Shown: one piece after another, positions 2,746 to 36,144 of the stretch | Numbering within the stretch: position 1 is the first letter of the stretch | Layout: every line of letters starts with the position of its first letter | Origin: Nemertoderma westbladi | Taxonomy: Eukaryota; Animalia; Xenacoelomorpha | Length of the DNA stretch: 36,144 nucleotides | Direction of reading: 5' to 3' | Assembly (NCBI GenBank): GCA_032718475.1 | Contig: JAUCBJ010005263.1 | Span: forward strand, 1 to 36,144 | Made by a program: the position numbers and the translations under genes | Notes under the pieces: generated by a model | Databases searched by the model: none | The model's input: the letters and a program-made list of their open reading frames with translations, nothing else | Told to the model about the DNA's origin: nothing

Positions 2746-2990
2746 AATAAATTTGTTGCGGTACTAAAATAAACAACTGGTTTAATTGTATGATATTATG
2801 TGATTCTCCTGGCACTATTCGTACTGTATATCTGGATAGAGCTGTATAAACTCAAAGTGGTACCCTACCTTAACCAGAGCGTACAACAGCAGAACAGTAC
2901 AAAAGACAATACTGCAGCAATGTAAAAATTAGTGTTAGTCTACCTGTCTACGCGCTAACAGGCTAATGGTACATCTGTACTGTACATAGT

Positions 2991-10539: not shown

Positions 10540-10782
10540 GTTCGTTGCCTTGATAAGGAAATACCTACTTATAATATAATACAAATAAATATGAATGCTC
10601 GTTCTTTTGAAAATGACTCACCAAGTCGTAACCTATTTGATGATATATTTTCTGTATTACAGTCCCCGCTGAGTCGCTGTCGCCCAGAATTTCTAGACGA
10701 CTTGAAGTAACTATTGAATATAAAAAGAAATATTCAATACGTTTATAATGTAAATATTTAATGTGGAATTAAATTTGTTTAG

Positions 10783-11967: not shown

Positions 11968-12561
<594 letters not shown>

Positions 12562-14545: not shown

Positions 14546-14778
14546 ATGATGGGGGGGGGGGGGGGGGGGGGAGGTTACATTATTTCTATTTTTTTTTTGG
14601 ACAACACCTTTATCTTTCTTTTCAAGGTTGTCTGTCAAAAGAAAAGTGATTGGTTTTTGCTATAATTGGATTGTTGGTTCCTAAACCACAATACTAAACC
14701 TGTAGTTTATATAAATAGGTCAGTTTAGACTTGAAACCACACGGGCGGCTTCTATTAACTAACATTAATTATTTGTCT

Positions 14779-14881
14779 GGATAATAAAAATAAAATAAAT
14801 TATTGAGCGTCTTTAGCTGGTGCAGTTTATTGAGGGTATCCCGCTAAAGACCTCCAATAATTTATTTTATTTTTATCATCC
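14779..14881. repeat. Inverted repeat/hairpin with 39-bp arms and a 25-nt loop
   Basis: 14779-14817 GGATAATAAAAATAAAATAAATTATTGAGCGTCTTTAGC pairs with 14843-14881 with about 4 mismatches. Confidence 0.85.
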
Positions 14882-15135
14882 ATACACTACTGTATGTTAC
14901 CGCTGGTAGGTACAACCCATAGGACCCATATTACGTTAAACACATTTGTCTATAGTTATTCCATAATTAAATTTATCTATGTACCTCTTAGGCCACCTAC
15001 CTAGTATACGGTAAATTAGCCAGAAAATAATGAGACCAAATTTTAACGAATTTCTTGGAAAAATAACGGTCGTGTCAGGTCTGAGTCATTTATAAATCCA
15101 ATAATTGAAAGATCACATTACTTAAAAAGATTGTA

Positions 15136-17568
15136 CCCTAGTAGCACACCAACGTTCACCTCACGTTTAGAATAGTTCTAATAACGTGGATAACGTTGTT
15201 CTGATAACGTTCTAGGTGCGTTCACGGTACACGTTCATCTAGGAAGGGATTTGTCCCGCTCAAAAAACGTTGATTCGACGTCATCTTATAAACGTTAGAT
15301 ATTCGTTCTAAAATGGTCCGTTCAACTAATTATTTACCGAACTCCTTTTGAACGGTTTAATATTGTTTTGAAAAGGTTCAATAATGGTTCCTTCCAACGT
15401 TCAAAACTGTTGGTTTGAACTGTGCTTGAACTAAAAGTGTGGTTCAAAAATGCCCCCCCCCCCCCCCCCCCCCTGGACAACTGACCACCGCTGTTAGTGT
15501 AACGATTTGTGTACTGCATGACTGCAGCAAAAGTAAATAAACTGAACATGAAAACAAACATTTGCTTGTTGAAATAACACCACAAGTTTATATTGAATAT
15601 TAGCACTACTTACTTTATCACAAATATACCGAATTTACCGAACATGAGAAACATGGAAAGAAATATAACAAGGAGATAAATCAAATAGGAAATACATAAT
15701 ATATCATTAAGGTAAAAGTTAAATATATAAGTCTAGAGTTAATTATTACAGAGTTGGAGTACTGTGTAATGATATCTTTCTCTGGGTAGCATTCCTTCGT
15801 TTTCTCCTGAATTTTGTAGCTAGTCGAATCCCCACACACACTCCATCCATAATAAATTGCCTTTCCCAGCTGTAACAAAAATAAAATTTATTTAAAAATA
15901 AAAAAAATTAAAAGAAACATTTTATGCACTACTTTACTTCAAAAAAAGGAAGGAGCCGATTATATAATTATACCTAATGAATAGCATGTTGTATAAGTCA
16001 CTTTTACTCCAAGTGATATACTGTTAGGCCTATACTTTTATAAACTGTATACTCTTGCACAAATATGAAACCGAATCTTTCTAATGTGATGCTCATTTAT
16101 ACATACATGTATAATATAAATATACATATAATATATATGCCGCCTCCGCTTTGCAGGACATTGCTTTCGCCGTGAGAACCAGTGAGTCGGTGCACAATCT
16201 TGCGCTTTGACACCCCATGATTTCACCCAAGACGCCTCTTAAAGGACATTGGCTTTGGAGATGCTGATAATTATGGGGACAGGGAATTGCGGCGGTGGAA
16301 TTTTGTATATGACCTGGCATATCATTCTTTGCATGCTGCTTCACAGTAAGCCAATTGAAGGTTGCATGGTGGTGGTGGTGAAACAAATTTTTGTTATAGA
16401 TAGATAAATACTTACATACCGCATTATAAACTTGAGAGATTCAACCAAAGAATTTAAGTATTTAATTTACCGCTGTGCCATAAGCAGGCTGATCGGTAAA
16501 TTGGATCAATTTAAAAAATTTATATTTATTCAATCATATTTTTTTGCATTAATTTTATCTGTTTATAACAACAATCTTCGAATTAAATTACATGCAGTAC
16601 CGCTCATGTGATATATTAAATTACATATTTTAAAGCTAATAACTCTATGTCTAAAGTTCTGTCATATATTCGACTAGAAATAAAATTATTAACTAATAAT
16701 TAAATTTTAAATAATTACCTTTAGTCTCTTTGATGGATGGCGGCCCTTTATTATTGGTCCCGATACGGTTGAAAAGCATCACAAGATTGACCTCGATCTT
16801 CGCACTGTTCACCTATTGAATATATGTACCCCATGACGGCATGACGTATGTACCCCATGCCGTTATAAAAATATACAGCAAATAATTGAGACGCAACAAA
16901 AATTAATTTAAATTACAGTTATACAATGCAGTATGTTGTATTACACACCGTTATACAGTACTACTGTATACTTTGCTCCTGAGTTCTGTATGAACCAATA
17001 TACCACTATTTTACATCATTCAGTACTTGGGCAGTTCCAGTATTGCCTGTAATTGGATGACTCATCACAGACACTGGTTCCCATAGCGTGGGAAAGTTTG
17101 TCGTTCAGATAATTATTATTTTGAACGGAAAATGTTTAGTATTGAACCGCTATTGAACTACGGTTATGAAAAACATAGTTTGGACATTTTTTGAACGACA
17201 ATTTTAAAAATATCTGAACTGAAATTGAACTGGTTAATTTTTATTGGATAATAAACAATATTGAAACGTTCACAATAGAAAACGGAAATATAACTTGCCA
17301 TTTACAAATCGTTACTTTTCAGTTTCTGAACTCAAATTGAACTGGTTATTGCTTTGGACGCCATTCAAACGTCCAAGAACATTAACGGGAAATTAACTGA
17401 TACCATTAATGAACGTTACTTTTCAGTTGAAACACCAACACCATTTAGGCGTTATTATATGGAGACTAATTTAGAACGTTCAAATCGGGTACAGTATGTG
17501 CGACGTTTATGGAGTGGACATGTTCTCAACGTCCAAAAGCTGTGTGTGAACGTTATGTGCTACTAGGG
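15136..17568. mobile_element. Non-autonomous CMC/EnSpm-like DNA transposon, ~2.4 kb
   Basis: TIRs CCCTAGTAGCACA...AACGTTCAC / GTGAACGTT..TGTGCTACTAGGG. TA target duplication at 15134-15135 and 17569-17570. Many subterminal AACGTT motifs at both ends. Confidence 0.8.
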
Positions 17569-18448
17569 TAGGTCCTATGGGTTGTAGGTATTGTGGGTTG
17601 TAGGTCCTATGGGTTGTAGGTCCTGTGGGTTGTAGGTACTGTGGGTTGTAGCTGTATGTACTGTGGGTTGTAGATCCTATGGGTTGTAGGTACTGTGGGT
17701 TGTAGGTACTGTGGGTTGTAGGTGCTATGGGTTGTAGCTGTATGTACTGTGGGTTGTAGATCCTATGGGTTGTAGGTACTGTGGGTTGTAGGTACTGTGG
17801 GTTGTAGGTGCTATGGGTTGTAGGTACTGTGGGTTGTAGGTACTGTGGGTTGTAGGTGCTATGGGTTGTAGGTACTGTGGGTTGTAGGTCTTATGGGTTG
17901 TAGGTACTGTGGGTTGTAGGTACTGTGGGTTGTAGGTCCTATGTGTTGTAGGTACTGTGGGTTGTAGGTCCTATGGGTTGCAGCTGTATGTACTGTGGGT
18001 TGTAGGTACTGTGGGTTGTAGGTCTTATGGGTTGTAGGTGCTGTGGGTTGTAGGTGCTATGGGTTGCAGCTGTATGTACTGTGGGTTGTAGGTACTGTGG
18101 GTTGTAGGTCTTATGGGTTGTAGGTGCTGTGGGTTGTAGGTGCTGTGGGTTGTAGGTGCTCTGGGTTGTAGGTACTGTGGGTTGTAGGTACTGTGGGTTG
18201 TAGGTAATGTGGGTTGTAGGTACTGTGGGTTGTAGGTACTGTGGGTTGTAGGTCCTATGGGTTGTAGGTCCTATGGGTTGTAGGTCCTATGGGTTGTAGG
18301 TACTGTGGGTTGTAGGTCCTATGGGTTGTAGGTCCTATGGGTTGTAGGTCCTATGGGTTGTAGGTCCTATGGGTTGTAGGTACTGTGGGTTGTAGGTCCT
18401 ATAGGTTGTAGGTACAACTGTGGGTTGTAGGTCCTATGGGTGGAAGAT

Positions 18449-20228
18449 AACTATGCTTATTCCCCAGAAGTTAGTTATTTTCCCAGTTATTTAACCCGCG
18501 GGCAGGAAACAACCCGAGGGCGAAGCCCGAGGGTGTTCCTGCCCAAGGGTTAAATAACTGGGAAAATAACTAACTTCTGGGGAATAAGTAAGTTGTTACA
18601 CATTAATTATGGTATGCATTTCGATTATTTTTATCCCTTAACAACTATTTACAGATTCTAAAAGGGCATTGTTTGGGGGGAGAGTTTACAAAATGGGGCT
18701 TGGGAAGTTTTGGGGGTGTTTATATTGATTTTGCCCAGTTATTTTGCCCAAGGGAATAATAACACCCAAGCTCCAAAGGTAAAACATTAGGCCTACTGTG
18801 TCATGTGTGTTGTATAGCTCTATGCTTAATTAATCCAATCGCCGTAAGATTCGATCATCAAAAAAGCACCTGAATTTGTTAGTGAATATTGATGTCAAAC
18901 TTATTTAAATGGTTTACATTCTAAAATTCCTATTTTCTTACATTGGCCGCTAGGGGTAACACATATTTTCACATTTACATCTTTCGCCGGGAAAACTAAG
19001 TTCAATGCAATCCTAGGCCTACTGTATGATTAACTATTATTCCCTAGGGAAAAAAGTAGGTACTTCTTTTTCTCCACATTTTGAGCTATATTTAAGTTAA
19101 CTAAATAGTAATTAATATTCCCATAGTAACGGGTTGTTATGCCAGTTTTAAAAGAAGGATGTCACTTAGAGTCAACCAACACCTATCTCCGCTCCACTAT
19201 ATCAAAGTATGGTCTAGAAAATGTAGTGTTGGCTAAGAACTGCATAAAAGTAAAGTAAAGTTATATTTAAACGTGTAAGAAGAAACACCCGAGGCAACAA
19301 CCCAAAGGCTCCATTATCTTGGCTATTATCTGTAACGCAGGGAAGGCACCACACTACTCCCAAGGTCGAGTACTCTGGTTATCTAACCATATTCTTTACT
19401 CCTTAACTCATGACAGGTTGCCATTAGCCTACAGTACAACTGGAAGCTAGCAAAAATTTGGCTGTTCTGGGGCTTGAACACCAGACCTTCCGCATAGAAG
19501 ACCGGTTAATACTTTTTTTTTACTTTACTTTTATATTAAAACGTTTCAATGTCTGTATTAAAAAGGAAAAGGCAGAAAGAGGCGAACGTATTTAAACGAC
19601 ATTCTTAGATAGGCCTATCTTTTTTTAACATTTAGGAGGAAGGAACTGGAGAAACGCCTCACTGCAGTACGAGGTAGTACGGTACCTTGCAGCCTATATA
19701 AATACAGGCCAAACTAGACCTACCTGCAGGGCTGCAGGCTGCAGACCTGGTACGGTGCGACTCTGGACTGTGACACTATGTAGGCCTACTGTACCGGTAC
19801 CTCTTAATTTGCTGTGGAAATTGAAAGTTTAGTCATAGATCAGTGCCATCAGTATAATTCGTCAGTATGAGTATGACAAATGAGGTGATTAATGAGACAT
19901 AAATAGGCCTTGCTGTCTAGTGGAGCACAGCCCAATAATAATGAAACATGAAATACAAAACGCCCAATAATAATGAAACATGAAGTACAAAACTAGTCGG
20001 TGGTCTGAATACCTGATTTACACCTGATGTGACACACAACAGACCTAAGACGAGTACAGCAGCATTACCGGTTCCTATGTTTATTGTATGTCAGTATGTG
20101 GTGTCACGATAAACACTTCACTACTAAGAGGGAATAACATGGTTATTTTGCCCTAGGGCAAAATAACTTTTTTGGCCGTAGCCCAGCATTAGGGGTAGTT
20201 ATCATCCCGCTAATAAATGTGTAACAAC
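18449..20228 (+). mobile_element. Non-autonomous Crypton-like element with a 5-prime hairpin, ~1.8 kb
   Basis: Interrupts the minisatellite at GGAAGATAAC|GT, with AAC at both ends and empty sites at 20407 and 20586. Perfect 42-bp arms 18456-18497/18547-18588. Right end 20211-20228 is complementary to 18592-18609. No ORF, so the Crypton assignment rests on architectural similarity to 28583-32296. Confidence 0.75.
19250..19510 (-). mobile_element. Possible tRNA-derived SINE fragment nested in the Crypton-like element
   Basis: Minus strand near 19460-19500 reads GGTCTGGTGTTCAAGCCCCAG (B-box/T-arm-like). A short GTAAA repeat marks the other end. Confidence 0.35.
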
Positions 20229-20722
20229 GTTGGTTGTAGGTACTGTGGGTTGTACGTACTGTGGGTTGTAGATCCTATGGGTTGTAGGTACTGTGGGTTG
20301 TAGATCCTATGGGTTGTAGGTACTGTGGGTTGTACGTACTGTGGGTTGTAGCTGTAGGTCCTACCTATAGGTTGTAGGTACAACTGTGGGTTGTAGGTCC
20401 TATGAGTGGAAGATAACGTGGGTTGTAGGTACTATGGGTTGTAGGTACTGTGGGTTGTAGGTACTGTGGGTTGTAGGTACTGTGGGTTGTAGGTCCTATG
20501 GGTTGTAGGTCCTATGGGTTGTAGGTACTGTGGGTTGTAGGTCCTATAGGTTGTAGGTACAACTGTGGGTTGTAGGTCCTATGGGTGGAAGATAACGTGG
20601 GTTGTAGGTACTATGGGTTGTACGTAGTGTGGGTGTAAACCCCCAGAGCAGCTGGTGCGAATGAACTTATTCACTCTAGGCATCAAGCAGCTAAGGAGGT
20701 AAGTTAAATGGAGCCAAAACAG

Positions 20723-21275
20723 GGATGCAGTCCCTTGCCCAATAAAAAAATATTATAGGTCACTTGCCCAATATATTTCATTTTTAACCGAAAGTAGGTC
20801 ACTTTACCAATAGGTCACTTGCCCAAAACTCGACTTACAGAATAAGTCACTTGCCCAATAAGTTTTTTGAGACCATAATTTCCATTCACTACGTATTCTG
20901 CCTGTTACTACTCCTACTACATCACATAATCAGATAGTGGCGCACATTGAGCGCAAGTGAAAATAGTGATCCTCTGCGCAAATTGAGCGCAAGTGAATTA
21001 ATTTATAGTTTATTGTTTTGGTTAGAAAACACCGCCACTGTAACGTGCTCCTTTCCATTATTGTTCTTAATTAAATAAAGCTAAATCTCAAAATATTGGG
21101 CAAGTGCCCTATTCGAAAACTGGCCTATTGGGCAAGTGTCCTATTGGGAAAGTGACCATATCAGATCTAGTTATTGGGGAAGTGACTCATACGGAAAGTG
21201 TCTTAAGGTAAATATTATTGGGCAAAAGTCTCATTGGGGAAGTGTCACTCACTATTGGACATCTGACACTTAACC
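20723..21275. mobile_element. MULE-like foldback/MITE with a 9-bp TSD and GTCACTTGCCCAAT subterminal repeats
   Basis: TSD CCAAAACAG (20714-20722) / CCAATACAG (21276-21284). GG...CC ends. Left-arm GTCACTTGCCCAAT units are mirrored by ATTGGGCAAGTGAC units. An empty-site copy AAGTTAAATGGAGCCAATACAG lies at ~21472-21493. Confidence 0.75.
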
Positions 21276-21486
21276 CCAATACAGAGCGTACAGTATAGCA
21301 GCCCGGCTTACTACAACTGTACACACAGGTAGCTCAATTAATAGGCAGCAAGGCAGGCCAGGCCCTACGGCTACACACATACACTTCATCCGTTCGTTCA
21401 ATACGTAATGCCCTGTCCCTGTCTGATTGATAGACTGAATCGGAATGTGGCCTATATTAACCTGACCACACAAGTTAAATGGAGCC

Positions 21487-21519
<33 letters not shown>

Positions 21520-21615
21520 TGTACAGTAGAGCAGCCCGGATTACTAGCTCATTATAATGCCCTGTCAGATTGATAGACTGAATCGGAATGTGGCTTATAT
21601 TAACCTGACTACACA
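21276..21615. repeat. Tandem duplication (~210-bp offset) with an (AG)14 microsatellite at 21492-21519 in the second copy
   Basis: CCAATACAGAG...TACAGTA.AGCAGCCCGG and TAATGCCCTGTC...GATTGATAGACTGAATCGGAATGTGG..TATATTAACCTGAC.ACACA each occur twice. Confidence 0.8.
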
Positions 21616-21859
21616 GCCAGCCTCAGCAATTAACTGGCGGCAATTACAGTATTACTGTATATTACTAAATAGAAAATAGAACCATTAATTAAGCTACTAC
21701 TACAGCAGTATTCAGTATAAAGCTACTACTACATGCATTTTATTTTGTTGTAAGTAACTTTTTGTGAAAGTCGTTAACAAGTTTGACAAAAAACTTTTTT
21801 TTATCAACAAAAAAAGGTAATGTTGAATTTAATTTCAAAGAAATTTCCATGATTTTTTA

Positions 21860-24380
21860 TACTAGCTAGTTTTTACTAATTTTTATAAAAATGTTATAGA
21901 ACACGTGTTAGCCACCAAATTTGATAAATATTTTTGTTCTTAGAACACATTTTTATTTTTTTTACTAGCTAATTTTTTCTACTTTTTTTTATAAATGATC
22001 TAGAAATAGAACACGTTTTAGTTATCAATTTTGATAAATATTTTTGTTCTAGAACACATTATTTATGTTCTAGAACGCATTTACTATGTTATATCTTCTG
22101 TGAGGCATTAGCCATTGTTTTTTTATGGGTAACTAGTGATTGTTTGAGGGAGCTACTGTTTTTAAAATTACAAAACCAAATTTTTGTTACCTCGTTTTTT
22201 ATATATTTTTGGACCAAATGTTAATGTATATTATCATGATGTTTTTTGTTCTACAGCGTAAATTATTTGAAAATACTAGCTAAACTAATAAAAAGTACTA
22301 GCTAACACAAAATTAAAATTACTAGCTACCATATTACTGGCAGAAGAGAAGGTCAAATAATTGTTCTAGAACACAAAACCACATGTTAAAAGCCATTTTC
22401 ATATGAAAAAATTGGACAAAAGGTGGCTACCCATAACAAAGTAGGCAAAGTCCGCCTAATTCCAGTAAGAAAGACAAGGTAGGTACGATATTGAACCCAA
22501 TTTAAATGCCCTTAACGATAAAGATAATAAATCCTTTCTTCACATACCGAACGCTGATAAGTTGACATAATGTAACAAAATTACATACATCACTGAGTGC
22601 AAAGGTCACTTGTAAGCGTTAAAGGCCCTTGTTTGTTTATCTGAACCTCCCTCGCTCCGCTCGCTCGCTTATTTTATTTATGTTCTAGAAAAGTATATAA
22701 TACTTTTCTATTGTTCTAGAACTCTTCAATGCAGCAATGTTGCCTTAGTACAGTAGTAACAATGACATAAGTTTTAAAAACATAAGTAAATACATAAGTT
22801 CTATATGGTACTTTAGCCATATTTTTAGTGTTTTTGTTATTGGTGGATGTTCTAGAACATTAGTAGGTAATATTATTTATTATGGTAGCTAGAGTTTTTT
22901 TTACTATCTTAGTATTATTTTCTAGTTAGTATTGTTTGAAAAAATGTTTTAATACTTTTTTCTTTAATTACTTTAATATTAATACCGGTATCTAATTTCT
23001 ACTCATTCTATTATCTGAAAAAAAATTTATGCTAGAGTTCCGTATAGAACTGCAGTTTTAAAACATATGTCATTGTTACTATGGCAACATTGTTGAGTTC
23101 TAGAACAAATTAAAATTATTATATACTATTCTAGAACATAAATGAAATAAAAAATATAATGTTCTAGAACATATAGCTATTTTTTTTTAATTTTAAAATA
23201 GCTAGTAAATTTAAAAAAATATCCAATTTGGTAGATAAATTTTCTAATAAATAAATTATATAAATAAATAAATTTTTTCGTATTACTAGCTATTTTAAAT
23301 TTGAAAAATAACTAGCTATATGTTCTAGAACATTATATTATTTTTATTATTTATGCTCTACAGTAGAATAGTGTATAATACATATAATATTACATAAATA
23401 AAATAAAAAATAATAATGTTCTAAAACATATAGCTAGTTTTTTTTAATTTTAAAATAGCTAGTAAATTTAACAAATAATACAATTTGGTACCGGTAGATA
23501 AATTTTTTAATAATAATATATATAAATAATTTTTTTTTATTACTAGCTATTTTAAATTTAAAAAATAACTAGCTATATATTCTAGAACAATAATTTTTTA
23601 TTTTATTTTTGTATTAGAATAGTGTATATTATATATTTTTTGTTCTAGCACTCTTCACTGTTGCCATGGAAACAATGATTTATGTTATAAAAATGCAGTT
23701 CTATACGGAACTGTTACCAATATTTAATACTTTTTTTTTCTTTAAGTACTTTAATACAGTAATATTAATATCTAATTTCTACTCGTTCTAGTATATTAAT
23801 TGATTAGGAATAGTTCTTTAGTTCTTCAGTTTCTCCGTTAATAGAGCCAAACAAATTTCTTCAATACCAATATCAACCTCAATTGGTGTATTTTTATATG
23901 TATTTTGATGTTCAGACATAGCTAGCTAGAAAATCGTATAAAATCAAATATACAGAATATAGTTTAAATCGTATTATGTTTTTATAATGTTCTAGAATGA
24001 ATACAAATCACCATAACAATAATTGGTACTTCTGCAGTATACCCCCACACCTTGATATATGTTTTATCACTTTCCTTTACTTAGCGAGAATCAAAGAGAA
24101 AGGAAGAAAACAAATTTGAACATTTAATAAATGACATAGTACAATTGTATAAATGTTAAGAAATTGAGAGGGTGTGGGGGTATACTGCAGTAGTACCTAA
24201 TAATTTACAAAAAAAAAGTAATTTCGATATTATTATTATATTGTTTAAATACAATCCGATTTTTTTCGAAAAAAATGTTCTAGAAAAAAAAATATTTGTT
24301 GTAGAACATTATTTTTTTAAAATTAATAGCTAACATGTTCTAGAACACTGTCAAAAGATTTAGCAAAACCTAGCTAGTAT
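21860..24380. repeat. AT-rich region of nested inverted and direct repeats rich in GTTCTAGAAC and TAGCTAGTA motifs
   Basis: Hairpin ~23152-23340 is duplicated at ~23400-23610. Segment ~23032-23140 is inverted relative to ~22680-22810 and ~23610-23713. A 27-bp inverted pair lies at 24025-24051/24171-24197. Confidence 0.75.
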
Positions 24381-24644
24381 TAAAAATGTTGTGCGGGGTG
24401 TATGGCTGCCATAGTAGTACCAAATCTGATTCACCCAGTAAGAAGTTGGGGGAGGTCAAACTCATGTAATTTCATAAAAGTTTGTAGAAAATTGAAGAGG
24501 ATGGGTGGCATATGAATTAAGAGTATACATAAACAAAAAACATAGTATAAGTTACAACAACTAAATTCTAGGATTTGAATTCAATATCTGACTTACAATG
24601 TTTAAATAAATGTTAATTCAAAAGGAAATTAATCTGATGCTGAC

Positions 24645-27600
24645 ATGACAATGAAAAATAAAGAGGCGGGAGGTGAACCCTATCAACGTCCTTGTCATAA
24701 TTTACTTAAAAAGAGAAAGCGTCGAATAAAAATTGCAAATGTTCTTGCTGTTGAAACTATTATGGATAAGATGTTGTGGGCGATTGATACAAACAACGTT
24801 TTAAGAGTTGATGAAATCAATGACATTAACACATACTCTAAACCATTAATTCGACGACGTGGTTTTCGTCATTATTGTTTAAATAGGAAATGCCGTTTCT
24901 GTGCCAAATTTATCGGTAGCGAAGAATTTTGGTGCTCATCGCATAAACTTAAGCTTGGCCAATTTCCGCGGGATCTCCGAAATCCCAAATTAATTACTGT
25001 TATCGGTAGTGGAAATCTCAAACACGGAAAACCAAGTACAGCTAATAATGGTACAGATAATGGTAGCAGTAACAGTGTTGATATAGATAATGGTTCAACA
25101 CGCACCATTGATAACAATTTCAGAGTTCTTGATATGGTCTTAGGTGATGGAAGGATGCGTAAATCGCATTTACGTATTAAGAAAAATAAATGTTTTGTCT
25201 GCAAACAATTTGTTTCGAAGAAGGCATCACACTGTATGAAACACAGACTCTTAAACGCAACCAGAGCGCGTCATATATCAACGTTTAACCAGAACGTTTT
25301 ACCAGACCGGTTAACGGGGGAGAAGTCCGTTCTCAGAAGTGGCAATATTAATGGAGTTGATAATAACATAACGAATGTGTCTTTGAAGCAAGAGCAGGGT
25401 CACATGGATCCTTATTCAATGAGTGTCCATCAAGATTCTAACTTAACTCTAAAAAATATTTCAAGCGAGTCAGTTGGCAGAGTTGGTAATATTCATGGAG
25501 TTGATAACAACATAACGAATGTGTCTTTGAAGCAAGAGCAGGGTCAAATGGATCCTTATTCTATGAGTGTCCATCAAGGTTTTAACTTAACTTTACCAAA
25601 TATTTCAAGCGAGTCAGTTGTCAGAGTTGGTAATATTCATGGAGTTGATAATAACATAACGAATATGTCTTTGAAGCAAGAGCAGGGTCACATGGATCCT
25701 TATTCAATGAGTGTCCATCAAGATTCTAACTTAACTCTACCAAATATTTCAAGCGAGTCAGTTGTCAGAGTTGGTAATATTCATGGAGTTTATAACAACA
25801 TAACGAATATGTCTTTGAAGCAAGAGCAGGGTCACATGGATCCTTATTCAATGAGTGTCCATCAAGATTCTAAGTTAACTCTACCAAATATTTCAAGCGA
25901 GTCAGTTGTCAGAGTTGGTAATATTCATGGAGTTGATAACAACATAACGAATATGTCTTTGAAGCAAGAGCAGGGTCACATGGATCCTTATTCAATGAGT
26001 GTCCATCAAGGTTTTAACTTAACTTTACCAAATATTTCAAGCGAGTCAGTTGTCAGAGTTGGTAATATTCATGGAGTTGATAACAACATAACGAATATGT
26101 CTTTGAAGCAAGAGCAGGGTCACATGGATCCTTATTCTATGAGTGTCCATCAAGATTCTAACTTAACTCTACCAAATAATTCAAGCGAGTCAGTTGTCAG
26201 AGTTGGTAATATTCATGGAGTTGATAACAACATAACGAATATGTCTTTGAAGCAAGAGCAGGGTCACATGGATCCTTATTCAATGAGTGTCCATCAAGAT
26301 TCTAACTTAACTCTACCAAATATTTCAAGCGAGTCAGTTGTCAGAGTTGGTAATATTCATGGAGTTGATAACAACATAACGAATATGTCTTTGAAGCAAG
26401 AGCATGGTCACATGGATCCTTATTCAATGAGTGTCCATCAAGGTTTTAACTTAACCTTACCAAATATTTCAAGCGAGTCAGTTGTCAGAGTTGGTAATAT
26501 TCATGGAGTTGATAACAACGTAACGAATGTGTCTTTGAAGCAAGAGCAGGGTCACATGGATCCTTATTCAATGAGTGTCCATCAAGGTTTTAACTTAACC
26601 TTACCAAATATTTCAAGCGAGTCAGTTGTCAGAGTTGGTAATATTCATGGAGTTGATAATAACATAACGAATGTGTCTTTGAAGCAAGAGCAGGGTCACA
26701 TGGCTCCTTATTCTATGAGTGTCCATCAAGATTCTAACTTAACTCTAACAAATATTTCAAGCGAGTCAGTTGGCAGAGTTGGTAATATTCATGGAGTTGA
26801 TAATAACATAACGAATATGTCTTTGAAGCAAGAGCAGGGTCACATGGATCCTTATTCTATGAGTGTCCATCAAGATTCTAACTTAACTCTACCAAATATT
26901 TCAAGCGAGTCAGTTGTCAGAGTTGGTAATATTCATGGAGTTGATAACAACATAACGAATGTGTCTTTGAAGCAAGAGCAGGGTCACATGGATCCTTATT
27001 CAATGAGTGTCCATCAAGGTTTTAACTTAACTTTACCAAATATTTCAAGCGAGTCAGTTGTCAGAGTTGGTAATATTCATGGAGTTGATAACAACATAAC
27101 GAATATGTCTTTGAAGCAAGAGCCTGGTCACATGGATCCTTATTCTATGAGTGTCCATCAAGATTCTAACTTAACTCTACCAAATAATTCAAGCGAGTCA
27201 GTTGTCAGAGTTGGTAATATTCATGGAGTTGATAATAACATAACGAATATGTCTTTGAAGCAAGAGCAGGGTCACATGGATCCTTATTCAATGAGTGTCC
27301 ATCAAGATTCTAACTTAACTCTACCAAATATTTCAAGCGAGTTAGTTGTCAGAGTTGGTAATATTCATGGAGTTGATAACAACATAACGAATATGTCTTT
27401 GAAGCAAGAGCAGGGTCACATGGATCCTTATCCTATGAGTGTCCATCAAGATTCTAACTTAACTCTACCAAATATTTCAAGCGAGTCAGTTGTCAGAGTT
27501 GGTAATATTCATGGAGTTGATAACAACATAACGAATATGTCTTTGAAGCAAGAGCAGGGTCACATGGATCCTTATTCTATGAGTGTCCATCAAGGTTCTA

Positions 27601-27911
27601 ACTTAACTCTAACAAATAATTCAAGCGAGTCAGTTGTCAGAGTTGGTAATATTCATGGAGTTGATAATAACATAACGAATATGTCTTTGAAGCAAGAGCA
27701 GGGTCACATGGATCCTTATTCAATGAGTGTCCATCAAGATTCTAACTTAACTCTACCAAATATTTCAAGCGAGTCAGTTGTCAGAGTTGGTAATATTCAT
27801 GGAGTTGATCTTGATAATGATAATAACATTACGAATGTGACAGTAAAGAGAGAGCTGAGCGACATGAATCCATTCCATTCCATGAATGTGATAACCAAGT
27901 TTGTAACGTAA
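24645..27911 (+). CDS. Orphan 1088-aa putative nuclear protein: NLS, two CxxC-x10-CxxH zinc-finger-like motifs, 17 x 48-aa repeats
   Basis: Uninterrupted 3.27-kb ORF with a non-repetitive ~225-aa N-terminus. Contains KKRKRR, CRFCAKFIGSEEFWCSSH and CFVCKQFVSKKASHCMKH. No recognisable family. Confidence 0.6.
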   Translation: MTMKNKEAGGEPYQRPCHNLLKKRKRRIKIANVLAVETIMDKMLWAIDTNNVLRVDEINDINTYSKPLIRRRGFRHYCLNRKCRFCAKFIGSEEFWCSSHKLKLGQFPRDLRNPKLITVIGSGNLKHGKPSTANNGTDNGSSNSVDIDNGSTRTIDNNFRVLDMVLGDGRMRKSHLRIKKNKCFVCKQFVSKKASHCMKHRLLNATRARHISTFNQNVLPDRLTGEKSVLRSGNINGVDNNITNVSLKQEQGHMDPYSMSVHQDSNLTLKNISSESVGRVGNIHGVDNNITNVSLKQEQGQMDPYSMSVHQGFNLTLPNISSESVVRVGNIHGVDNNITNMSLKQEQGHMDPYSMSVHQDSNLTLPNISSESVVRVGNIHGVYNNITNMSLKQEQGHMDPYSMSVHQDSKLTLPNISSESVVRVGNIHGVDNNITNMSLKQEQGHMDPYSMSVHQGFNLTLPNISSESVVRVGNIHGVDNNITNMSLKQEQGHMDPYSMSVHQDSNLTLPNNSSESVVRVGNIHGVDNNITNMSLKQEQGHMDPYSMSVHQDSNLTLPNISSESVVRVGNIHGVDNNITNMSLKQEHGHMDPYSMSVHQGFNLTLPNISSESVVRVGNIHGVDNNVTNVSLKQEQGHMDPYSMSVHQGFNLTLPNISSESVVRVGNIHGVDNNITNVSLKQEQGHMAPYSMSVHQDSNLTLTNISSESVGRVGNIHGVDNNITNMSLKQEQGHMDPYSMSVHQDSNLTLPNISSESVVRVGNIHGVDNNITNVSLKQEQGHMDPYSMSVHQGFNLTLPNISSESVVRVGNIHGVDNNITNMSLKQEPGHMDPYSMSVHQDSNLTLPNNSSESVVRVGNIHGVDNNITNMSLKQEQGHMDPYSMSVHQDSNLTLPNISSELVVRVGNIHGVDNNITNMSLKQEQGHMDPYPMSVHQDSNLTLPNISSESVVRVGNIHGVDNNITNMSLKQEQGHMDPYSMSVHQGSNLTLTNNSSESVVRVGNIHGVDNNITNMSLKQEQGHMDPYSMSVHQDSNLTLPNISSESVVRVGNIHGVDLDNDNNITNVTVKRELSDMNPFHSMNVITKFVT
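25325..27810 (+). repeat. 144-bp tandem repeat, about 17 copies, in frame
   Basis: CACATGGATCC-like anchor recurs every 144 bp from 25401 to 27705. Confidence 0.95.
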
Positions 27912-29199
27912 CTCAATCAATGCCTACGGCTACAATAATTATGCGAGTAAAAGAAGAGAGTTAGTGGCGGCCACATGATCACAGCGGATGTAACAAGAGC
28001 TCGAAAGGTTGCTTGGTTCAAAAGACATTTCACAGACGCATGATGAGAAGATTTATGTCCGGCCAACTTCTTTTAGGATGTGAACAATAACCTATCTCTC
28101 TACTAACTTAAATGTTCCAAAAACTACTAGTTCTTCATGAATTGTTATTAATATTTACTTTCCCATTTTGATTGTAGTTTCAAGTGTATTCGTATTCTAC
28201 AGTACTAGAGTGTGGGGCGAGCCACGCAGTTAGGTGAGCCTTTATGTCGTGGTATAATTAGTGGGCCATTTGTCGTCGTTGGAAAAGTTTGAACCTAATA
28301 AGCTATAAATTATAGATGAAACGGAACAAAACTTGGCACAAATGTAGTCTATCAAATGTTTAGAAATTGTAAAGACTGACTTATATAGTTCCTCTGCCGG
28401 CCGCTAGGGGTAATATTATAAGAACCCTAGAAGAGGCTATAATAATAGTACTGTATAATTTCATATTAATCTGAAATTTGGTAGGAGTGACCTAGTCCAT
28501 TAATTTTAATGCTACGCAAAGGCTCATCTAGATTTATGCTGTTCGAACGTGTACTGTACTTATGCAGACTACTGTATAATACTGTTTATTGTTAATTTTC
28601 GCATATTGCTACGGAAACTAGCTAAAATTATAATCGTATAATTTTAAAAAAATGTTCTATAATTGTTGTATTATACCATTTTTTCCTAAAATTATACTCT
28701 TTTCTTAGAAATTGCTCTGATACGGGATTCTAGAAAATATATGTTGCAGTATATTCATATAATTTTATGTATTATCCTATGGTACAGCAATATACCAAAC
28801 TTGCTACGGTTTCTTTCAATAATGTACTGTAACTATATATTTCACATTAAGCAAAATGACCATCCCAATAAGATTCACAGATTGGCACTTTAAATTCTAA
28901 TCCAGTATTCGTAAGAATTATAACTCTTATTACAATCTGACCTCACCAAAAGCCGCGCGAGCATCATTAAATTAGATAGAAACGGCATAAAAAACGGAAG
29001 ATCGTTTCGTTGTTTGCGATCTTATTAATTTAATTAAATTTTACTGGGGGGGGGGGGGGGGGGGGGGGAATAATCATTATTATGAATATCCATAGTAAAG
29101 TTGGCTTATCTTTATTAATTTATCAGTGAAAAGAGTCTAGAAAATAATATAACGTGATTTCTGCAACAATTTATTAAATAGATAATTAAAAAAATCTAC

Positions 29200-29425
29200 A
29201 GTAGTTGCACAAATTCGGTCGTCCTTACGACTCATTTCCAGTATAGACCCCACAGAACTATACTCCTTACAGGCAAAGAGATAACTGGTACTCATTTAAC
29301 GACCATTTAATTAACAAAGCATATATGCGCCCTGGTTTGGTTAGTCCCTTTAAAGCATTTGTGCCAAAACGAAAACTATCCTGGCCCGCCTGCAGGGGTA
29401 GAACCCCACGACCTCTGGAGCGATA
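29200..29425 (-). mobile_element. Possible tRNA-derived SINE fragment
   Basis: Minus strand GAGGTCGTGGGGTTCTACCCCTGCAGGCGGGCCA (T-arm-like) followed by AAATGAGTACCAG, a motif seen in invertebrate SINE cores. Confidence 0.4.
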
Positions 29426-29541
29426 TTAATTCAAGGAAATGGATTTAAATGCTACGCAAGGCTTGAAAAAATTGAATATATGCGTGTTTGTATTAGAACA
29501 CGATCCTTAAAAATACAAAGTATGCTGTCATGTTGTTCGTT

Positions 29542-29807
29542 CAATATGCTCTAATTAACAATAAACATACAATATTGCAATGTTCTAGAGTTAATATACA
29601 TACAATATTGACTTTGACTTTATATTATCCTTCAGCAAATTAACCTAATATAATAACCTCGGCCTGCGGCCTCGGTAATTATACAGGTTAATTTGCTTCT
29701 GGAACGGCATCAGTGATTATTCAGTTTCATTCGCTTCAGGTTATTATTTCCGTATATTAACTCTAGAACATTGCAATATTGTGTTTATTGTTAATTTGAG
29801 CATATTG
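29542..29807. repeat. Internal copy of the Crypton hairpin with an intact end-to-end junction
   Basis: Arms 29542-29599 / 29752-29807. 29625-29788 is a 164-bp direct repeat of 32133-32296 with 4 mismatches. Confidence 0.9.
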
Positions 29808-29992
29808 GAAGTACTACTAGCGTAGTGTATGCGTTTAAAGCCAATTTTTAGGATGAGTTCCAATACAACATGGTTATTTTATTTATTATTTCACAGTTAA
29901 ATAGTATGTTAAGCATATTATACTGTATCATTTTATAGTATTTTTAATGTTATTACGAAGAAAAACGCCTAATGAAATTACACCGATACAAG

Positions 29993-31724
29993 CTATATTT
30001 TGTAATAATTTATATTGACATTTGAGTTATTTATAATAGGTGGAGGAAATGTAGACGGGTAATTATAATTCCTCATCAAACCAAAGTTTATCCCTGAGCC
30101 TCCAACACCTGGGTATCCTGGACTTCCAACACCCTGTACACCTATACCAACACCTGTGAAGGCTGACCCTCCTACACCACGAAATCTTTGACTTCCAACA
30201 CCTGGGTATCCTGGACCTCCAACACCCTGTACACATAGACCAACATCTGTGAAGGCTGACCCTCCTACACCACGAAATCTTTGACTTCCAACACCTGGGT
30301 ATCCTGGACCTCCAACACCCTGTACACATAGACCAACACCTGTGAAGGCTGACCCTCCTACACCACGAAATCTTTGACTTCCAACACCTGGGTATCCTGG
30401 ACCTCCAACACCCTGTACACATAGACCAACACCTGTGAAGGCTGACCCTCCTACACCACGAAATCTTTGACTTCCAACACCTGGGTATCCTGGACCTCCA
30501 ACACCCTGTACACCTAGACCAACACCTGTGAAGGCTGACCCTCCTACACCACGGAATCCTTGTCTTCCAACACCTTGTATACCAGGATCTCCAGCACCAG
30601 TGAACGCCCTGAAACCTGGATTGAGAAATTGTCCTCCACCTAAATGTCCAACACTCTCTACTTCTTCAAGAGCCGCGATAAGCAATTCATCATCATCATT
30701 GGCAATGACATGGATATCCATTTCAGGAGCAAAGTTGTCGATATTGTCTATTCTACGTTTTTTTGAGAAGACAGATGACAAGCTGTCAAACATTTCTTTC
30801 TTTTTAATTTCAGAGCATGCAGTGCATGCAGTGGTTGGTGTATTTTTGACTAAGCTCTAAGTTAACACAGAGATTGGTCATAAATCCAGCTAATGTGTTG
30901 CGTCCAACAATCCTTCCTTCATACCACATTTTGTCTCTCACTTGTGGTTTCTGGCGTGGCTTCTGCCACAAACAAGCACTTTGAGAACTTAGCTTTGATA
31001 CATACAACTCATATGAGTGCAGCGGGCATTGATCGTCGTCAGGGTTTTCATAAAGCCGCCCTTCGTTTGCAATAGCCGTGTCATTGCGGACATGATTCTT
31101 ATCAAGCTCATCCATTCCTTGTTCTAAATAGCGTAATCCAGTGGAATGGTCTACTTGAATAGCAAAAGTGCTTTTAGTCATTCCATAGAGATTTTCTCTT
31201 CCCCTGCGACAAAAGAAATATAGTATATAGAACAATACACTTTGCTGAAGCTTCTTAGGTTCACAAAGAGTTTTATCTATTGTGAAGTATTCCTTTATCT
31301 TTATAAGATCTTCTTCAATGATTTGCCTCTTATTCATTATAACGGCCTTTCCTTGCTTTTTTGTTTCTACACTCATCGCCGTAAACATCAGGTTAGCTTG
31401 ACTAAACTCACTATCGCTAACTATATCAATATTGCGCTCGATTTTGAAATGTCTATTTAAAGATGCACGGATGGCTTTCAGTGAGGTGAGTTTGTAAAAA
31501 GAATTATCTTCCTTTCGAATATTTGAATAAAATTCAAAGAGCAAACTAGGTAGATCGTCATTGCTCAATGATGAAAGATCTCCTTTACCAGTTTCTTTCA
31601 GATACGATTGTAGTATCGCTATATGAGAACTCGTAGCAAGTTTGGTATTTTTGCTAATTCTATTATCTATTAAATAATTCTGTCTTTCAACAGAAACACT
31701 TTGGAATCTGTTTGTATAAGACAT
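29993..31724 (-). pseudogene. Crypton tyrosine recombinase (DUF3504/KCTD1-ZMYM-related) gene with a deleted catalytic C-terminus, split into ORFs 30810-31724 and 29993-30793
   Basis: Motifs YKLTSLKAIRASLNRH, FFCRRGRENL, DELDKNH, CPLHSYELYVSKL, LWQKP, WY..RIVGRNTLAGFM and YTNHC, then a stop. The downstream frame carries SEIKKKEMFDSLS and the C-terminal INNSNVNINY motif typical of Crypton YRs. Confidence 0.85.
30100..30600 (-). repeat. 93-bp coding tandem repeat (~5 copies; 31-aa Gly-rich GVGGSAFTGVGLCVQGVGGPGYPGVGSQRFR)
   Basis: TGTGAAGGCTGACCCTCC recurs at 30155, 30248, 30341, 30434 and 30527. Confidence 0.92.
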
Positions 31725-32053
31725 TTATATTTGTCTTTGTATTATTATTATACTATAGCTCATGCCACTACATTAATTTGTATTAAATATAATGTAATGT
31801 ATATTTTCTAGAATCCCGTATCAGAGCAATTTATAAGAAAAGAGTATAATTTTAACATTTATAGAACATTTTTTTAAAATTATACGATTTTTTTAAAATT
31901 ATACGATTATAATTTTAGCTAGTTTCCGTAGCAATATGCGAAAATTAACAATAAAAACACAATATTGCAATGTTCTGGAGTTAATAAACGGAAATTATTT
32001 CCGTTTATTGTTAATTTTCGCATATTGCTACGGAAACTAGCTAAAATTATAAT

Positions 32054-32291
32054 CACAATATTGCAATGTTCTGGAGTTAATATACGGAAATAATAACCTT
32101 CAGCGAATAAAACTGTAATAATCACTTCTGCCTTATCCTTCAGCAAATTAACCTAATATAATAACCTCGGCCTACGGCCTCGGTAATTATACAGGTTAAT
32201 TTTCTTCTGGAACGGCATCAGTGATTATTCAGTTTTATTCGCTTCAGGTTATTATTTCCGTATATTAACTCCAGAACATTGCAATATTGTG
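32054..32291. repeat. Terminal hairpin of the Crypton (46-bp perfect outer arms, imperfect inner stem)
   Basis: 32054-32099 is the exact reverse complement of 32246-32291. Apex motif at 32165-32183. Confidence 0.92.
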
Positions 32292-33416
32292 TTTATATTG
32301 GATCACAATATTCACTGATTAAACTGTTGAAAAACGAAAACCGTGGTTACCTGCGACATTACATAATAATAAACGTTTACCTGCGACATTACATAATAAT
32401 CTCAAGACTCACATTTTCCGATACATTTATCAGGGTATCGGTTGCGTTTATCACAAATGCGAATCCGACAAGCCAATTAATTTTAATGAAATTCTAGGCA
32501 CAAAATGCTGTAATCATGAGTTTTCGTTTAATAGCAGGAACATCAAGAGTGAACATCATGGGAAATTGTATTCCCGCCAGGTTGTTAATTCCGAATGTCT
32601 ATACTTGACCCCCCCCCCCCCCCCCCCCCCTCTCTAGGCTGTTAGAGATTTACTTAATTAATAGTAAATCAATAATATTATTGATATATTGGCCTAGATT
32701 TTAATTAGTTTACTACGAATTTGCGTATTCCAGCTGTCAAACCGCCAACTATCACACCTGTCACACCCACTATACTCAAATCTAAACTCTACTGCGACGT
32801 CTTATTCACCGTTCAACGCAACCTAAGTGGAGGTGGTGTTCGTTTTTACTCCGCTACAATGAAATAATGTGCATTATATATCAACCATGGACCATCACGG
32901 TTACACATTTTTCCTGCAGTAGTCCTAATAGGTTTTTTATACTTTTAATAATTATTGCTCCAATACGGGATTAAATAGCCGTTAAAAATCAAATTTGCCC
33001 GAATATCAATAAATTAGGCAGCTAATCGCAAAAGCTTAAACTACAAACAAAGCGCAGCTCTTCAGTGACGTCACATGGGCGGCCAATGGTGAGGGGGGAT
33101 AATGTGTAAATATTACACCCAACCCAACCTATGCATATTTTATTTTGTAAATTTAAATAAATTTATTTTATTCTTCCGAAGAGAAACCAGTATTAAGTAT
33201 TTTGTCATGCATAACGTACAAATGAAAATGAAACTAAAGTGTTAAGATTAACACCCTTGATAGAGAAATAGCCTCTTACTTAATTTCTTTCATATCCAAT
33301 CACTTTATAGTTCTGTCAATCTAGGCAAAAATGTGAGTTTTTTTATTCTATATTATCTTGATAAAATACCCCGAAAAAGTATATAATAACTATAAATAAT
33401 TCATTGTGTGAATAAC

Positions 33417-33885
33417 AGATATGGGGGCGGGGCAAACTGGACGCAATGTAGTTGAAGCTGAAGTGTTCAATTGTGCTTAGTTTATTGTTTTGGTTAACAT
33501 AACGTGCCACTGTCGTACTCGTAACCTGCTCCTTTCCTAAATTGAGAATTTAACATTGAGGCGGGATTTGCGTCCAGTCCCCACCCCCCCCCCCCCCCCC
33601 CCCCTCCTATGTCTCGAAAAGAAACACGTTTCAACGTTTTAGGGTTATAAAGATGAGGTTATAAACATACGTCAACAAGTTAAACATAGCAACATGGTGA
33701 AGTGCATATTAGTGGAATATAGACTTAACTAGGCCCCTATATTTTGACTATTGATTGACGGAACTCTTAATACTTTTTATTATCATTTTTTTTTATTATT
33801 CTACGAACTAAAGCTAAAAAAATGTTCAAAATTGTTGTTCAAAATTCATTCCTCATCTTTTGCATCCAGTTTCCCCCTGTCTCGT
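33417..33885. mobile_element. Small MITE-like element with AAACTGGACGCAA / TTGC(G/A)TCCAGT inverted ends
   Basis: 33434-33446 is inverted at ~33568-33578 and again at 33860-33877; G/C-rich flanks. Confidence 0.4.
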
Positions 33886-34649: not shown

Positions 34650-35778
34650 TCATTGTTGACCCTTAATTAACATCTTCATGTAATATTCCCGGCCCTGTAA
34701 GACGATCTCACTAGTGGCCCGCTGGCGCAGTATCTAAAGCCTAACTCGTCAGCGACATCCCGCCAATAGGAGAACCGCTCTGGGGTCACGTATTCCTTCA
34801 CCTTAAGATGCCTTTTGGTTGGCTGTTGGTACTGACCGAGAGTTAGGCAGTCTACTCCCACCAATCTGATATCCCTGAGGGTCTCTCTGATTTGCTCGTC
34901 GGTTTCGCCCAATCCCAGCATCACCGATGTTTTAGTAAGTAGATTCTGATTGGTGGATTAGCATGACGCAGCACGGCCAGCGATTGGTCGTATTTGGCGC
35001 GCGGGTCGCGCACATGCTGTGTCATTAGGCGCGTAGTTTCAACGTTATGAGCGAACACGTCCAACCCGGATGACGTCACCGTATCCACAGCAACGAGGTC
35101 CCCCCTAAAGTCTGGGACCAAACACTCTATCAACATGGTAGGTTTCGCTCGCTTCGTTTCGCGTACAGTCGCGGCGATGTGCGCGGCGCCGCCGTCCACC
35201 AGATCGTCGCGATCTACCGAGGTTATCACGACGTAGTCCAACCCCCACTCCGATATAGCCGCGGCGGTGTTCCCGGGTTCGTTTGGGTCCGGAGGCGGCG
35301 GATTTCGAGAAGTTTTCACGGAACAGAAACGACACCCTCTGGTGCACTGATCGCCGAGCACCATAATCGTGGCCGTCGCAGAACCTTCGGCGCCCCAACA
35401 CTCACCGATGTTAGGGCACTTAGCTTCTTCGCACACCGTATTTAAGTTTAACTTCCTCAGCGACTCCTTTAAGCGATGGTAATTTTTTCCAGACGGAATC
35501 TTCATCTTTATCCATGGCGGGATTCTCAACCTCTCGTTGGCTGCTGTTATTTTAAGTTTACCGCCGTATTCTGTTACTTTGTCTTCCTCTATCGATCGTT
35601 CTATGAAATCATCGAGGTTAGGGCCTTGAGTTAGTTTCTGTTTCTGGGATTGCGATAAAGAAGATGATTTAGCGTATACAAAGTCCACCGGAAGTCCGTG
35701 TCGAGAAGGAGGACGTTTCGTCTCAGATGATTTCGACAGATTAATAAAGTCATACCGGTACTGAACATAATCCAACAC
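34650..35778 (-). CDS. LIAS: Lipoyl synthase (radical SAM) with two apparent 1-bp deletions; 5-prime end uncertain
   Basis: [12 protein letters not shown] (CX4CX5C), CTRGCRFC (CX3CX2C), [30 protein letters not shown] and GPLVRSSY. Restoring one base at ~34958 and one at ~34689 gives ...[17 protein letters not shown]... and ...[15 protein letters not shown] (stop 34650-34652). Confidence 0.9.
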
Positions 35779-36144
35779 AATGTAGTCTATAATAGTAACA
35801 AACTAAAGATAAAATCACTCAAATGAAAGCAAAGTTGACTAAGCACCATCGTTACATATTATTAATTTCTTTTTTCAATTATGACTGTTTGTAAATAAAA
35901 TTTCAGTTGGCCTAAATAAATTATTGTAGCTTTCAAGTCTAAAGAAAATTATAAAAATCTAATATGAATAAATATTAAAGGGGTCCATAAAAGTAAAAAA
36001 AATAATGCATTTTATTTACAATATTCAACAAGCCTTATAATCAGTTAAATATCCTATATCAAGCAGCACGGTACCGACTGACCGATAATGTGTAAACTAA
36101 GTATAGTAACCGGTAGGTAATAACCAAGAATCAAACAAGGTTAC

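Follow-up and report, generated by a model that had tools for sequence, protein, structure and literature searches.

The 36,144-nt stretch of Nemertoderma westbladi contig JAUCBJ010005263.1 (assembly GCA_032718475.1), hereafter the window, contains two mobile elements with long hairpins that end in small GNA-type loops, and one of the two carries a tyrosine recombinase (YR) gene with a DUF3504 domain. The elements were putatively placed with the CryptonA-type transposons, an assignment made from the DUF3504 YR, the short terminal direct repeats and the multi-copy state. Both are interspersed multi-copy families with non-autonomous derivatives. The three hairpin apexes, each identified by sequence, folding and motif scan, were:

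18513..18533, plus strand: apex 1, with a GA/GA 2x2 internal loop, a 4-bp stem and a C-GAA-G triloop
32165..32183, minus strand: apex A, with a GA/GA loop, a 4-bp stem and a C-GTA-G triloop
29657..29675, minus strand: apex B, with a GA/GA loop, a 4-bp stem and a C-GCA-G triloop

The sequences and coordinates of all three apexes in a first-pass annotation of the window were exact, and the two related 19-nt apexes A and B differed only in the loop N, as it had claimed. A scan of the window with the pattern CGAG-N1-4-C-GNA-G-N1-4-CGAG produced three matches and none in each of 100 dinucleotide shuffles. A long hairpin was present beneath every apex, with folding z values of -15, -11 and -4.7. The proposed covariation of the inner stem was also seen, in the form of compensatory differences between the two window families. 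The CCGAGG words, which had been taken for direct repeats, were on folding rather the two sides of one stem with a facing 2x2 GA/GA internal loop, and in relatives the hexamer varied while the facing Y-GA-R pairs stayed. By nuclear magnetic resonance, sheared G:A pairs have been shown for Y-GA-R tandems in DNA, and GNA triloops have been shown to be stable loops there (PMC10085684). According to published chemistry, the complementary TC/TC strand is unable to form sheared G:A pairs. DNA folding with ViennaRNA gave nearly equal energies for both strands of the hairpins, so strand-specific stability is taken from the published chemistry, from which preferential folding of the GNA strand is predicted.

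The element that carries apex 1, H1, and its surroundings were resolved as follows:

18449..20228, plus strand (GNA strand): element H1, a non-autonomous, putatively Crypton-type element of 1780 bp with no YR coding sequence (junctions, read cover, tblastn)
18452..18604, plus strand: long 5-prime terminal hairpin of H1, its 3-prime arm continuing into a stretch complementary to the far end (arms, junctions)
20173..20185, plus strand: small, degenerate C-GTA-G hairpin close to the far end of H1, with one stem mismatch, on the same strand as the apex (sequence)
17568..18441, no strand: left part of a 16-bp minisatellite, the target of H1 (repeat scan)
20232..20634, no strand: right part of the minisatellite, containing the empty-site unit (repeat scan, junction comparison)

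The empty site of H1 was an uninterrupted unit of the 16-bp satellite (20584-20600), and only AAC was common to both junctions (3-bp overlap). Read evidence was taken from assembled contigs, which lose rare variants. In contigs of four runs the cover was zero at 18440-18445 and began in the bin 18446-18451, and foreign flanks preceded 18449-18452 in contigs of three runs. The arms of hairpin 1 (18456-18508 and 18536-18588) were 96% complementary, and the inner arm with its flank showed near-perfect complementarity to the far end, with one small bulge. No YR homology was found in H1 by tblastn. The deepest contigs passed apex 1 without differences, and the three variants listed were all outside the apex. 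Separately, several contigs matched one arm of hairpin 1 and ended precisely at the loop tip (18521-18524), possibly from tip breakage or an assembly effect, and the downstream copy of the relative L067 also broke at its apex.

The second element is a composite unit with hairpins A and B, the YR gene between them and a number of rearranged parts:

28583..32296, minus strand (GNA strand): composite unit, putatively CryptonA-type, with a 7-bp direct repeat, ATAAACA, at each end (32290-32296 and 28583-28589)
32048..32297, minus strand: hairpin A, 5-prime terminal on the GNA strand, with three GA/GA 2x2 loops, all on the minus strand (folding, repeats)
31905..32054, minus strand: rearranged second palindrome, both breakpoints at the GTT/AAC core (inverted-repeat scan)
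31769..31998, minus strand: internal segment that repeats, in inverted form, the end-to-end junction and the far end (28585-28771), resembling an internal complementary region or asymmetric terminal inverted repeat (complementarity)
30810..31724, minus strand: DUF3504 tyrosine recombinase open reading frame (ORF) of 304 aa, lacking the end of the catalytic domain (Pfam DUF3504, E 6.7e-9)
29993..30856, minus strand: likely C-terminal recombinase frame with a 93-bp tandem repeat of 5.4 copies (ORF and repeat scan, weak tblastn link)
29542..29807, minus strand: hairpin B, an internal complete palindrome with an intact junction core (ATAAACA at 29782-29788; repeats, junctions)
28743..28972, plus strand: decayed 5-prime remnant of a YR gene, starting about 160-200 nt after the GTTT terminus (tblastn, E 9e-6)

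Beyond about position 32300 the contig depth dropped from thousands to tens, and low-depth contigs connected both ends of the unit to flanks; no empty site for the 28583-32296 unit was seen in contigs. Depth over the YR was about 610 and reached thousands at the hairpins, compared with about 47 for a flank contig; these are rough values that do not give copy numbers. Hairpin B shared 164 nt with hairpin A at 98% identity. The internal inverted copy at 31769-31998 was 100% complementary to the far end over its first 69 nt and 84% over 195 columns, and the junction complementarity of unit A had one 2-nt insertion and one substitution over 88 nt. The palindrome at 31905-32054 is possibly a product made by the recombinase or an assembly artefact. 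The 304-aa ORF, which also had a weak QRICH1 match, ran in the opposite orientation to most relatives, and the remnant at 28743-28972, with 76% DNA identity to 31455-31545, had the orientation seen in relatives. The intact-looking ORF of the window is thus likely an inverted duplicate and the remnant likely keeps the ancestral orientation, as far as sequence comparison can tell. At 30818-30826 this copy had 7 letters where contigs of three runs had 101. The 93-bp repeat (30101-30598) was in frame in the C-terminal region of the recombinase and codes for a Gly/Pro/Val-rich tract. Overall, the proposed position of the hairpin at the 5-prime end of the GNA strand held for hairpins 1 and A and failed for hairpin B (apex 29657-29675), which lies 3-prime of the YR gene within the 28583-32296 unit.

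Relatives of the recombinase were obtained in one metagenome scan with an alignment of 35 proteins as query. The best 80 of 136 confirmed stretches (L001-L080) formed 57 families at 80% DNA identity, many of them from few assemblies and therefore not independent, and the comparative results below are based on these loci around homologous recombinases and on the contigs of four sequencing runs. Of the 33 loci with sufficient sequence, 15 had a long palindrome 400-1100 nt beyond the YR match, and 23 loci in 20 families had a long palindrome downstream or just upstream of the YR, compared with three in 101 kb of far flank. The 2x2 loops of the YR-linked hairpins were of the GA/GA type in 23 of 37 cases. 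Control loops, taken from other inverted repeats of the same loci and from other repeats of the window (511-998, 14774-14886, 20797-21157 and 22669-23725), were of this type in 3 of 44 and 0 of 13 cases, respectively, and the excess over controls gave a Fisher value of 1.7e-9 on counts that are not independent. Stem pairs around the fixed GA and G-A positions changed compensatorily across relatives. If the CCGAGG-like words were double-stranded protein-binding direct repeats with incidental folding, their flanking of the apex in both window families would be expected; in relatives, however, the two words differed mutually and were complementary outside GA (L058, L065, L048 and the arms of window A), and their spacing changed with stem length. 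This covariation largely refutes the binding-site explanation, which is considered very unlikely.

None of 21 hand-picked hairpins mixed the two polarities, including the six with at least two GA/GA loops, which argues against random micro-inversion. This bears on the explanation of the mismatches as a functionless mutational by-product, in which template switching turns the TC of CC-TC-GG quasi-palindromes into GA by inversion and makes the arms alike. TC does read GA in reverse complement, and rearrangements were present at 31905-32054 and in L002, L007 and L063, the last with a loop that looks micro-inverted. Random inversion would nevertheless give equal numbers of GA/GA and TC/TC on each strand, yet no hairpin mixed them, control inverted repeats had no excess and polarity was tied to the element ends; a by-product is therefore a very improbable source.

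Eleven families had the GA/GA polarity on the non-coding strand and two had it on the coding strand (p 0.022), and the coding-polarity cases inspected (L050 and L059) were second hairpins beyond a first. Judged from the loci compared, polarity follows the element ends: the long hairpin is 5-prime terminal on the GNA strand, and the gene usually points in the opposite direction. The first-pass annotation had equated the GNA strand with the YR coding strand, and this applied only to the gene at 31724-30810; H1 had no YR match, the remnant at 28743-28972 is on the opposite strand and most relatives had the opposite polarity. Orientation was accordingly not random, yet it was tied to the ends and not to the coding strand, and the G and A of the loop did not vary freely. 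The same polarity bears on whether the structure acts as RNA, in an antisense or read-through transcript. Tandem GA pairs are stable in RNA too. Polarity, however, followed the ends and not the ORF, no Rfam match was found in 17000-33500 and no tRNA was present, and the five runs listed with the stretch, from a DNA-kind search, included no RNA run. The stability of the C-GNA-G triloop has moreover been described for DNA (PMC10085684), and an RNA role is given the lowest weight of the explanations considered here.

An intact GA-bracketed apex was found in 8 of the 20 palindrome families, seven on the non-coding strand and one on the coding strand, with the loops GAA (three families), GCA, GGA, two 4-nt G..A loops (one in L060) and one non-GNA loop. 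L023, L035 and L036 kept a central loop of the right kind and had lost one GA, and L030 had the stem of hairpin 1 with a GTA loop. The repeated GA/GA mismatches along the whole stem, together with the end architecture, were a stronger signal than the apex. The 19-nt mini-hairpin design was also present in 39 phage contig stretches (L081-L119) with no Crypton YR nearby, so the mini-hairpin alone is not Crypton-specific. The stem closed in 24 of 41 phage matches and 40 of 41 had no long stem; the mini-hairpin of L090 tops a longer stem, and L097 and L118 had two copies each.

The phage occurrences would point to a general folded-DNA motif and hence to a priming or initiation signal, a second-strand origin or an N4-like single-strand promoter, for copying of an excised circle. 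In the N4-type promoter, a template-strand hairpin upstream of the start site is read by a virion RNA polymerase. Here the hairpin was usually 3-prime of the gene and no virion RNA polymerase was present. A priming signal is poorly matched by a palindrome that stops precisely at the crossover core and has complementarity to the far end, and by an apex that is dispensable in several families and usually on the non-coding strand. This explanation is regarded as quite unlikely.

For the test of the element ends, the 18 nt just outside the distal hairpin were taken and their inverse was sought in the 700 nt before the YR, in comparison with 200 shuffles. Eight of 11 testable loci had an inverted recurrence of the stretch outside the hairpin, placed 222-280 nt ahead of the YR and equalled by no more than 11 of the 200 shuffles; the matches covered about 11-15 nt, and seven of the eight began with GTTT. 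An equal end match was found on the other strand in L063. In the upstream interval, 27 of 52 loci had the word GTTT[ACG]TT on the coding strand and three had it on the other strand. This word was often the first arm of a small hairpin with a loop of the same polarity; the strand bias of these small-hairpin loops was 13 versus 2 loci (p 0.007). Distal ends had TTG, two extra bases and then a GTTT-like word, and in L080 the distal end was joined directly to a start, a junction-like 3-prime/5-prime join. Nine relatives of 2.1-2.4 kb, with ends chosen by eye, showed overlaps of 0-10 nt (median 4), and the YR gene took up most of their length. The two ends had no more than a short core around GTT/AAC in common, and in both window elements the inner arm of the hairpin with its flank was an inverted copy of the end-to-end junction; this end arrangement is a new observation here. 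As the inner arm runs into the far-end complement, end joining would restore a longer palindrome.

Branching was seen in some small terminal hairpins, where two or three TNC loops lie side by side on the coding strand (L022:3779-3820, L023:3752-3800 and L053 upstream of the YR), and a CCAAT-like word followed them in many loci. The small terminal hairpin of L015 (1-300) appeared inverted relative to the YR, either through a real flip or through short-read misassembly.

The distal catalytic motif H-x-x-R...GH...Y was kept in 20 of the 67 loci scanned, including the hairpin-bearing L004, L058 and L060, and the YR copy of the window lacked the distal catalytic part. The protein model of L004 (pLDDT 87.9) had its best predicted match with Cre (Z 15.9, root-mean-square deviation (rmsd) 5.2, 279 aligned), followed by Xer enzymes, integron integrase (Z 12.8, rmsd 6.0, 249 aligned) and QRICH1 (Z 12.1). 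The modelled fold does not decide between single- and double-stranded substrates. An ORF and Pfam scan of the window's elements found no reverse transcriptase (RT), RNase H, DDE or HUH/RepHel genes, leaving the YR as their sole protein, and the fold search with the L004 model gave no HUH match. A telomere resolvase of a linear hairpin replicon, prompted by the inverted YR duplicate, was rejected, since relatives had no inverted duplicate and, as weak evidence, protelomerases matched poorly (Z at most 5.9).

Helitron2 has an asymmetric terminal repeat that forms a small hairpin at one end, with its partner immediately preceding the hairpin at the opposite end (PMC3627910). This topology matches the ends described here and the coding orientation of Helitron2 is sometimes reversed (PMC3627910), as would be expected if the ends were of Helitron2 type and were used in trans by an HUH protein (RepHel), with the YR only integrating the circle or being a passenger. 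Complete relatives, however, were only 2.1-2.4 kb and mostly YR gene, the folded protein was a YR without an HUH match, and the arms were 60-125 bp long and reached the terminus, so that Helitron2-type ends have a very slim likelihood. In a wider comparison, Helitron2/Helentron (PMC3627910) and IS200/IS605 elements (PMC13565253) resemble the present elements in having hairpins at both ends, asymmetric terminal inverted repeats (TIRs), strand-specific hairpins and occasional coding reversal, but use HUH enzymes where a tyrosine recombinase is found here.

Likenesses were also found among systems with tyrosine recombinases. Integron attC sites are bounded by AAC and GTT, and their strand is selected by unpaired bases (PMC2727003). 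The attC/IntI system shares with the present elements a tyrosine recombinase, an AAC/GTT-bounded imperfect palindrome, unpaired features that set the two strands apart and, close to the core, a bulge. It differs in that no integron integrase, attI or cassette array was seen here, the enzyme is inside the element, the asymmetry is mostly in tandem G:A pairs and the GNA loop, and folded-strand recombination is established for attC and proposed here. The attP(+) site of CTX phage forms a duplex site by folding of one strand, is recombined by XerC/D and is resolved by replication (PMC4246890); the folded one-strand site, the single pair of exchanges and the replicative resolution are those of the mechanism proposed below, but CTX uses host recombinases, a fixed dif target and its own rolling-circle protein, whereas here an own YR and varied targets are found. 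DIRS elements have an essential internal complementary region and trinucleotide overlaps (PMC7192593). They are likewise eukaryotic YR elements with an internal inverted junction copy and a trinucleotide end overlap and use single-stranded DNA intermediates; in contrast, the present elements have no RT, RNase H or gag, and their complementary region is fused to the terminal hairpin. The predicted outcome also parallels that of SEs, integrative elements that circularize with a strand bias (PMC9345347), which differ in being bacterial and in having four genes, short 19-bp inverted repeats and no attC-like fold at the att sites.

In the favoured reading, to which about even weight is given, the three apexes cap terminal hairpins of CryptonA-type transposons with polarised mismatches, so that one strand is predicted to fold and is the likely substrate of the recombinase in a single-stranded step. 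It suggests that mobility likely proceeds through folded single strands and not through the double-stranded circles usually assumed. The GNA strand, when exposed, for example at a replication fork, would fold into a tight rod, and pairing of the inner arm with both ends would create a duplex recombination site out of a single strand. A folded single-stranded circle may then be freed, or joined to a target with short homology, through one pair of strand exchanges at the core. Replication would resolve the junction, giving copy-out transposition, which would explain the multiplication of Cryptons. The apex loop would mainly nucleate or stabilise the fold and would not be read as sequence. In this scheme, strand use by the recombinase, the single exchange and the replicative resolution are modelled on integron attC, CTX attP(+) and DIRS. 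Of the earlier proposal of a strand-specific folded-DNA signal tied to Crypton mobility, the signal itself was supported by the comparative data and a promoter, origin or nick-site role at the loop is less favoured, because the GA/GA mismatches along the whole stem and the end architecture point to a folded recombination substrate more than to any of these; the single-stranded step is one that we infer. More broadly, and with somewhat less than even confidence, animal CryptonA elements may be eukaryotic counterparts of integron cassettes and CTX phage, in which the element's own YR would recombine one self-folded strand that is selected by sheared G:A pairs and the GNA loop, with the ends splinted by the internal junction copy, in a replicative peel-and-paste process without HUH or RT.

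A number of observations weigh against folded-strand recombination. The modelled enzyme fold was nearer to Cre, an enzyme of double-stranded DNA (dsDNA), than to integron integrase. Twelve of the 20 families with a long palindrome had no intact GA-bracketed apex, L007, L013, L022 and L075 had no apex, the loop of L063 was on the opposite strand from its GA/GA loops, and L024 (5932-6064) and L055 (3596-3750) had a common, different apex without GNA. L001 and L023 did not pass the junction test and L007 gave a weak result, a loose count showed no enrichment of the small upstream hairpin over background (13 of 52 loci versus 70 of 425 tiles, p 0.125), and the window A/B family had, compared with relatives, a 2-nt bulge beside the core on the opposite arm. 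Among the contig joints listed there was no circle junction or empty-site joint, and none of the 40 best variants or 15 joints listed was at the apex or at the predicted circle junction. Finally, dsDNA with the same sequence features would likewise tend towards cruciform extrusion. L024 and L055, for their part, still carried TC/TC-type mismatches and the same ends.

Cruciform extrusion would proceed from an excised dsDNA circle, in which the restored palindrome is extruded with nucleation by GNA and the YR, a host nuclease or a replication factor acts on the well-formed arm. The long palindrome restored by end joining in the circle, the Cre-like enzyme fold and the contigs ending precisely at the loop tip, as tip cleavage would leave them, are consistent with such a route, and the dsDNA circle is the model assumed in print (PMC13565253). 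The many TC/TC bubbles of the other arm, however, would probably cost energy, and the overlaps of 2-4 nt are short for a two-strand exchange, given YR spacers of 6-8 bp (PMC3212892), and the cruciform route is considered unlikely.

The double-stranded-circle model alone leaves the gain of copies unexplained. The anatomy described here supplies exact ends, a crossover core, a predicted active strand and bases to mutate, which makes the question of mobility directly testable. If folded-strand recombination holds, recognition of a fold by a eukaryotic recombinase, with only about 3-4 bp of homology required in the target, would represent a new mechanistic class and a possible integration tool. 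It would be relevant, too, to how the ZMYM, QRICH1 and KCTD1 domains arose and to the human Eulor5/6 fossils.

Eulor repeats and some fish non-autonomous Cryptons have reportedly been noted to be self-complementary. Animal Cryptons were reported without terminal repeats (Kojima and Jurka 2011, PMC3212892), and the present ends provide a rule for locating their boundaries. The main text of PMC3212892 contains none of the words hairpin, palindrome and stem, and the accessible part of the Glomhoppers paper (PMC13465315) mentions no hairpin or palindrome. For Eulor5/6 and the salmon Crypton-N1_SSa, terminal similarity was noted with the structure undescribed in the accessible text (PMC5753468). 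The Crypton transposition mechanism is described as undemonstrated, with a double-stranded circle assumed (PMC13565253). No literature description of these Crypton ends was found in a search outside of which lay the Repbase reports, the Kojima 2020 review, Fig. 1c of PMC5753468 and Additional file 1 of PMC3212892, which may describe hairpins. The present elements agree with published CryptonA in the single DUF3504 YR gene, the animal host, the many non-autonomous derivatives, the absence of classical TIRs and target site duplications and the short end overlap, and differ in the long polarised hairpin, the asymmetric inverted repeat, the second small hairpin and the GTT/AAC core.

Other features of the window included two host genes identified with Pfam, a FAM135-like gene (DUF3657, DUF676) at 7842-12561 on the plus strand and a lipoyl synthase-like (LIAS) frame at 34921-35802 on the minus strand; by these genes the window appears to be of animal origin. 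The control repeats at 511-998, 14774-14886, 20797-21157 and 22669-23725 are inverted-repeat/satellite elements without GA/GA loops or GNA apexes. An open frame of 465 aa at 2967-4364 (plus strand) had no Pfam match, looked helical-repeat-like and ended in an HPDK motif reminiscent of a J domain. Finally, in an open frame of 1092 aa at 24633-27911 (plus strand) a 144-bp (48-aa) repeat occurred 17 times, and the frame had weak Pfam matches of the propeller type.

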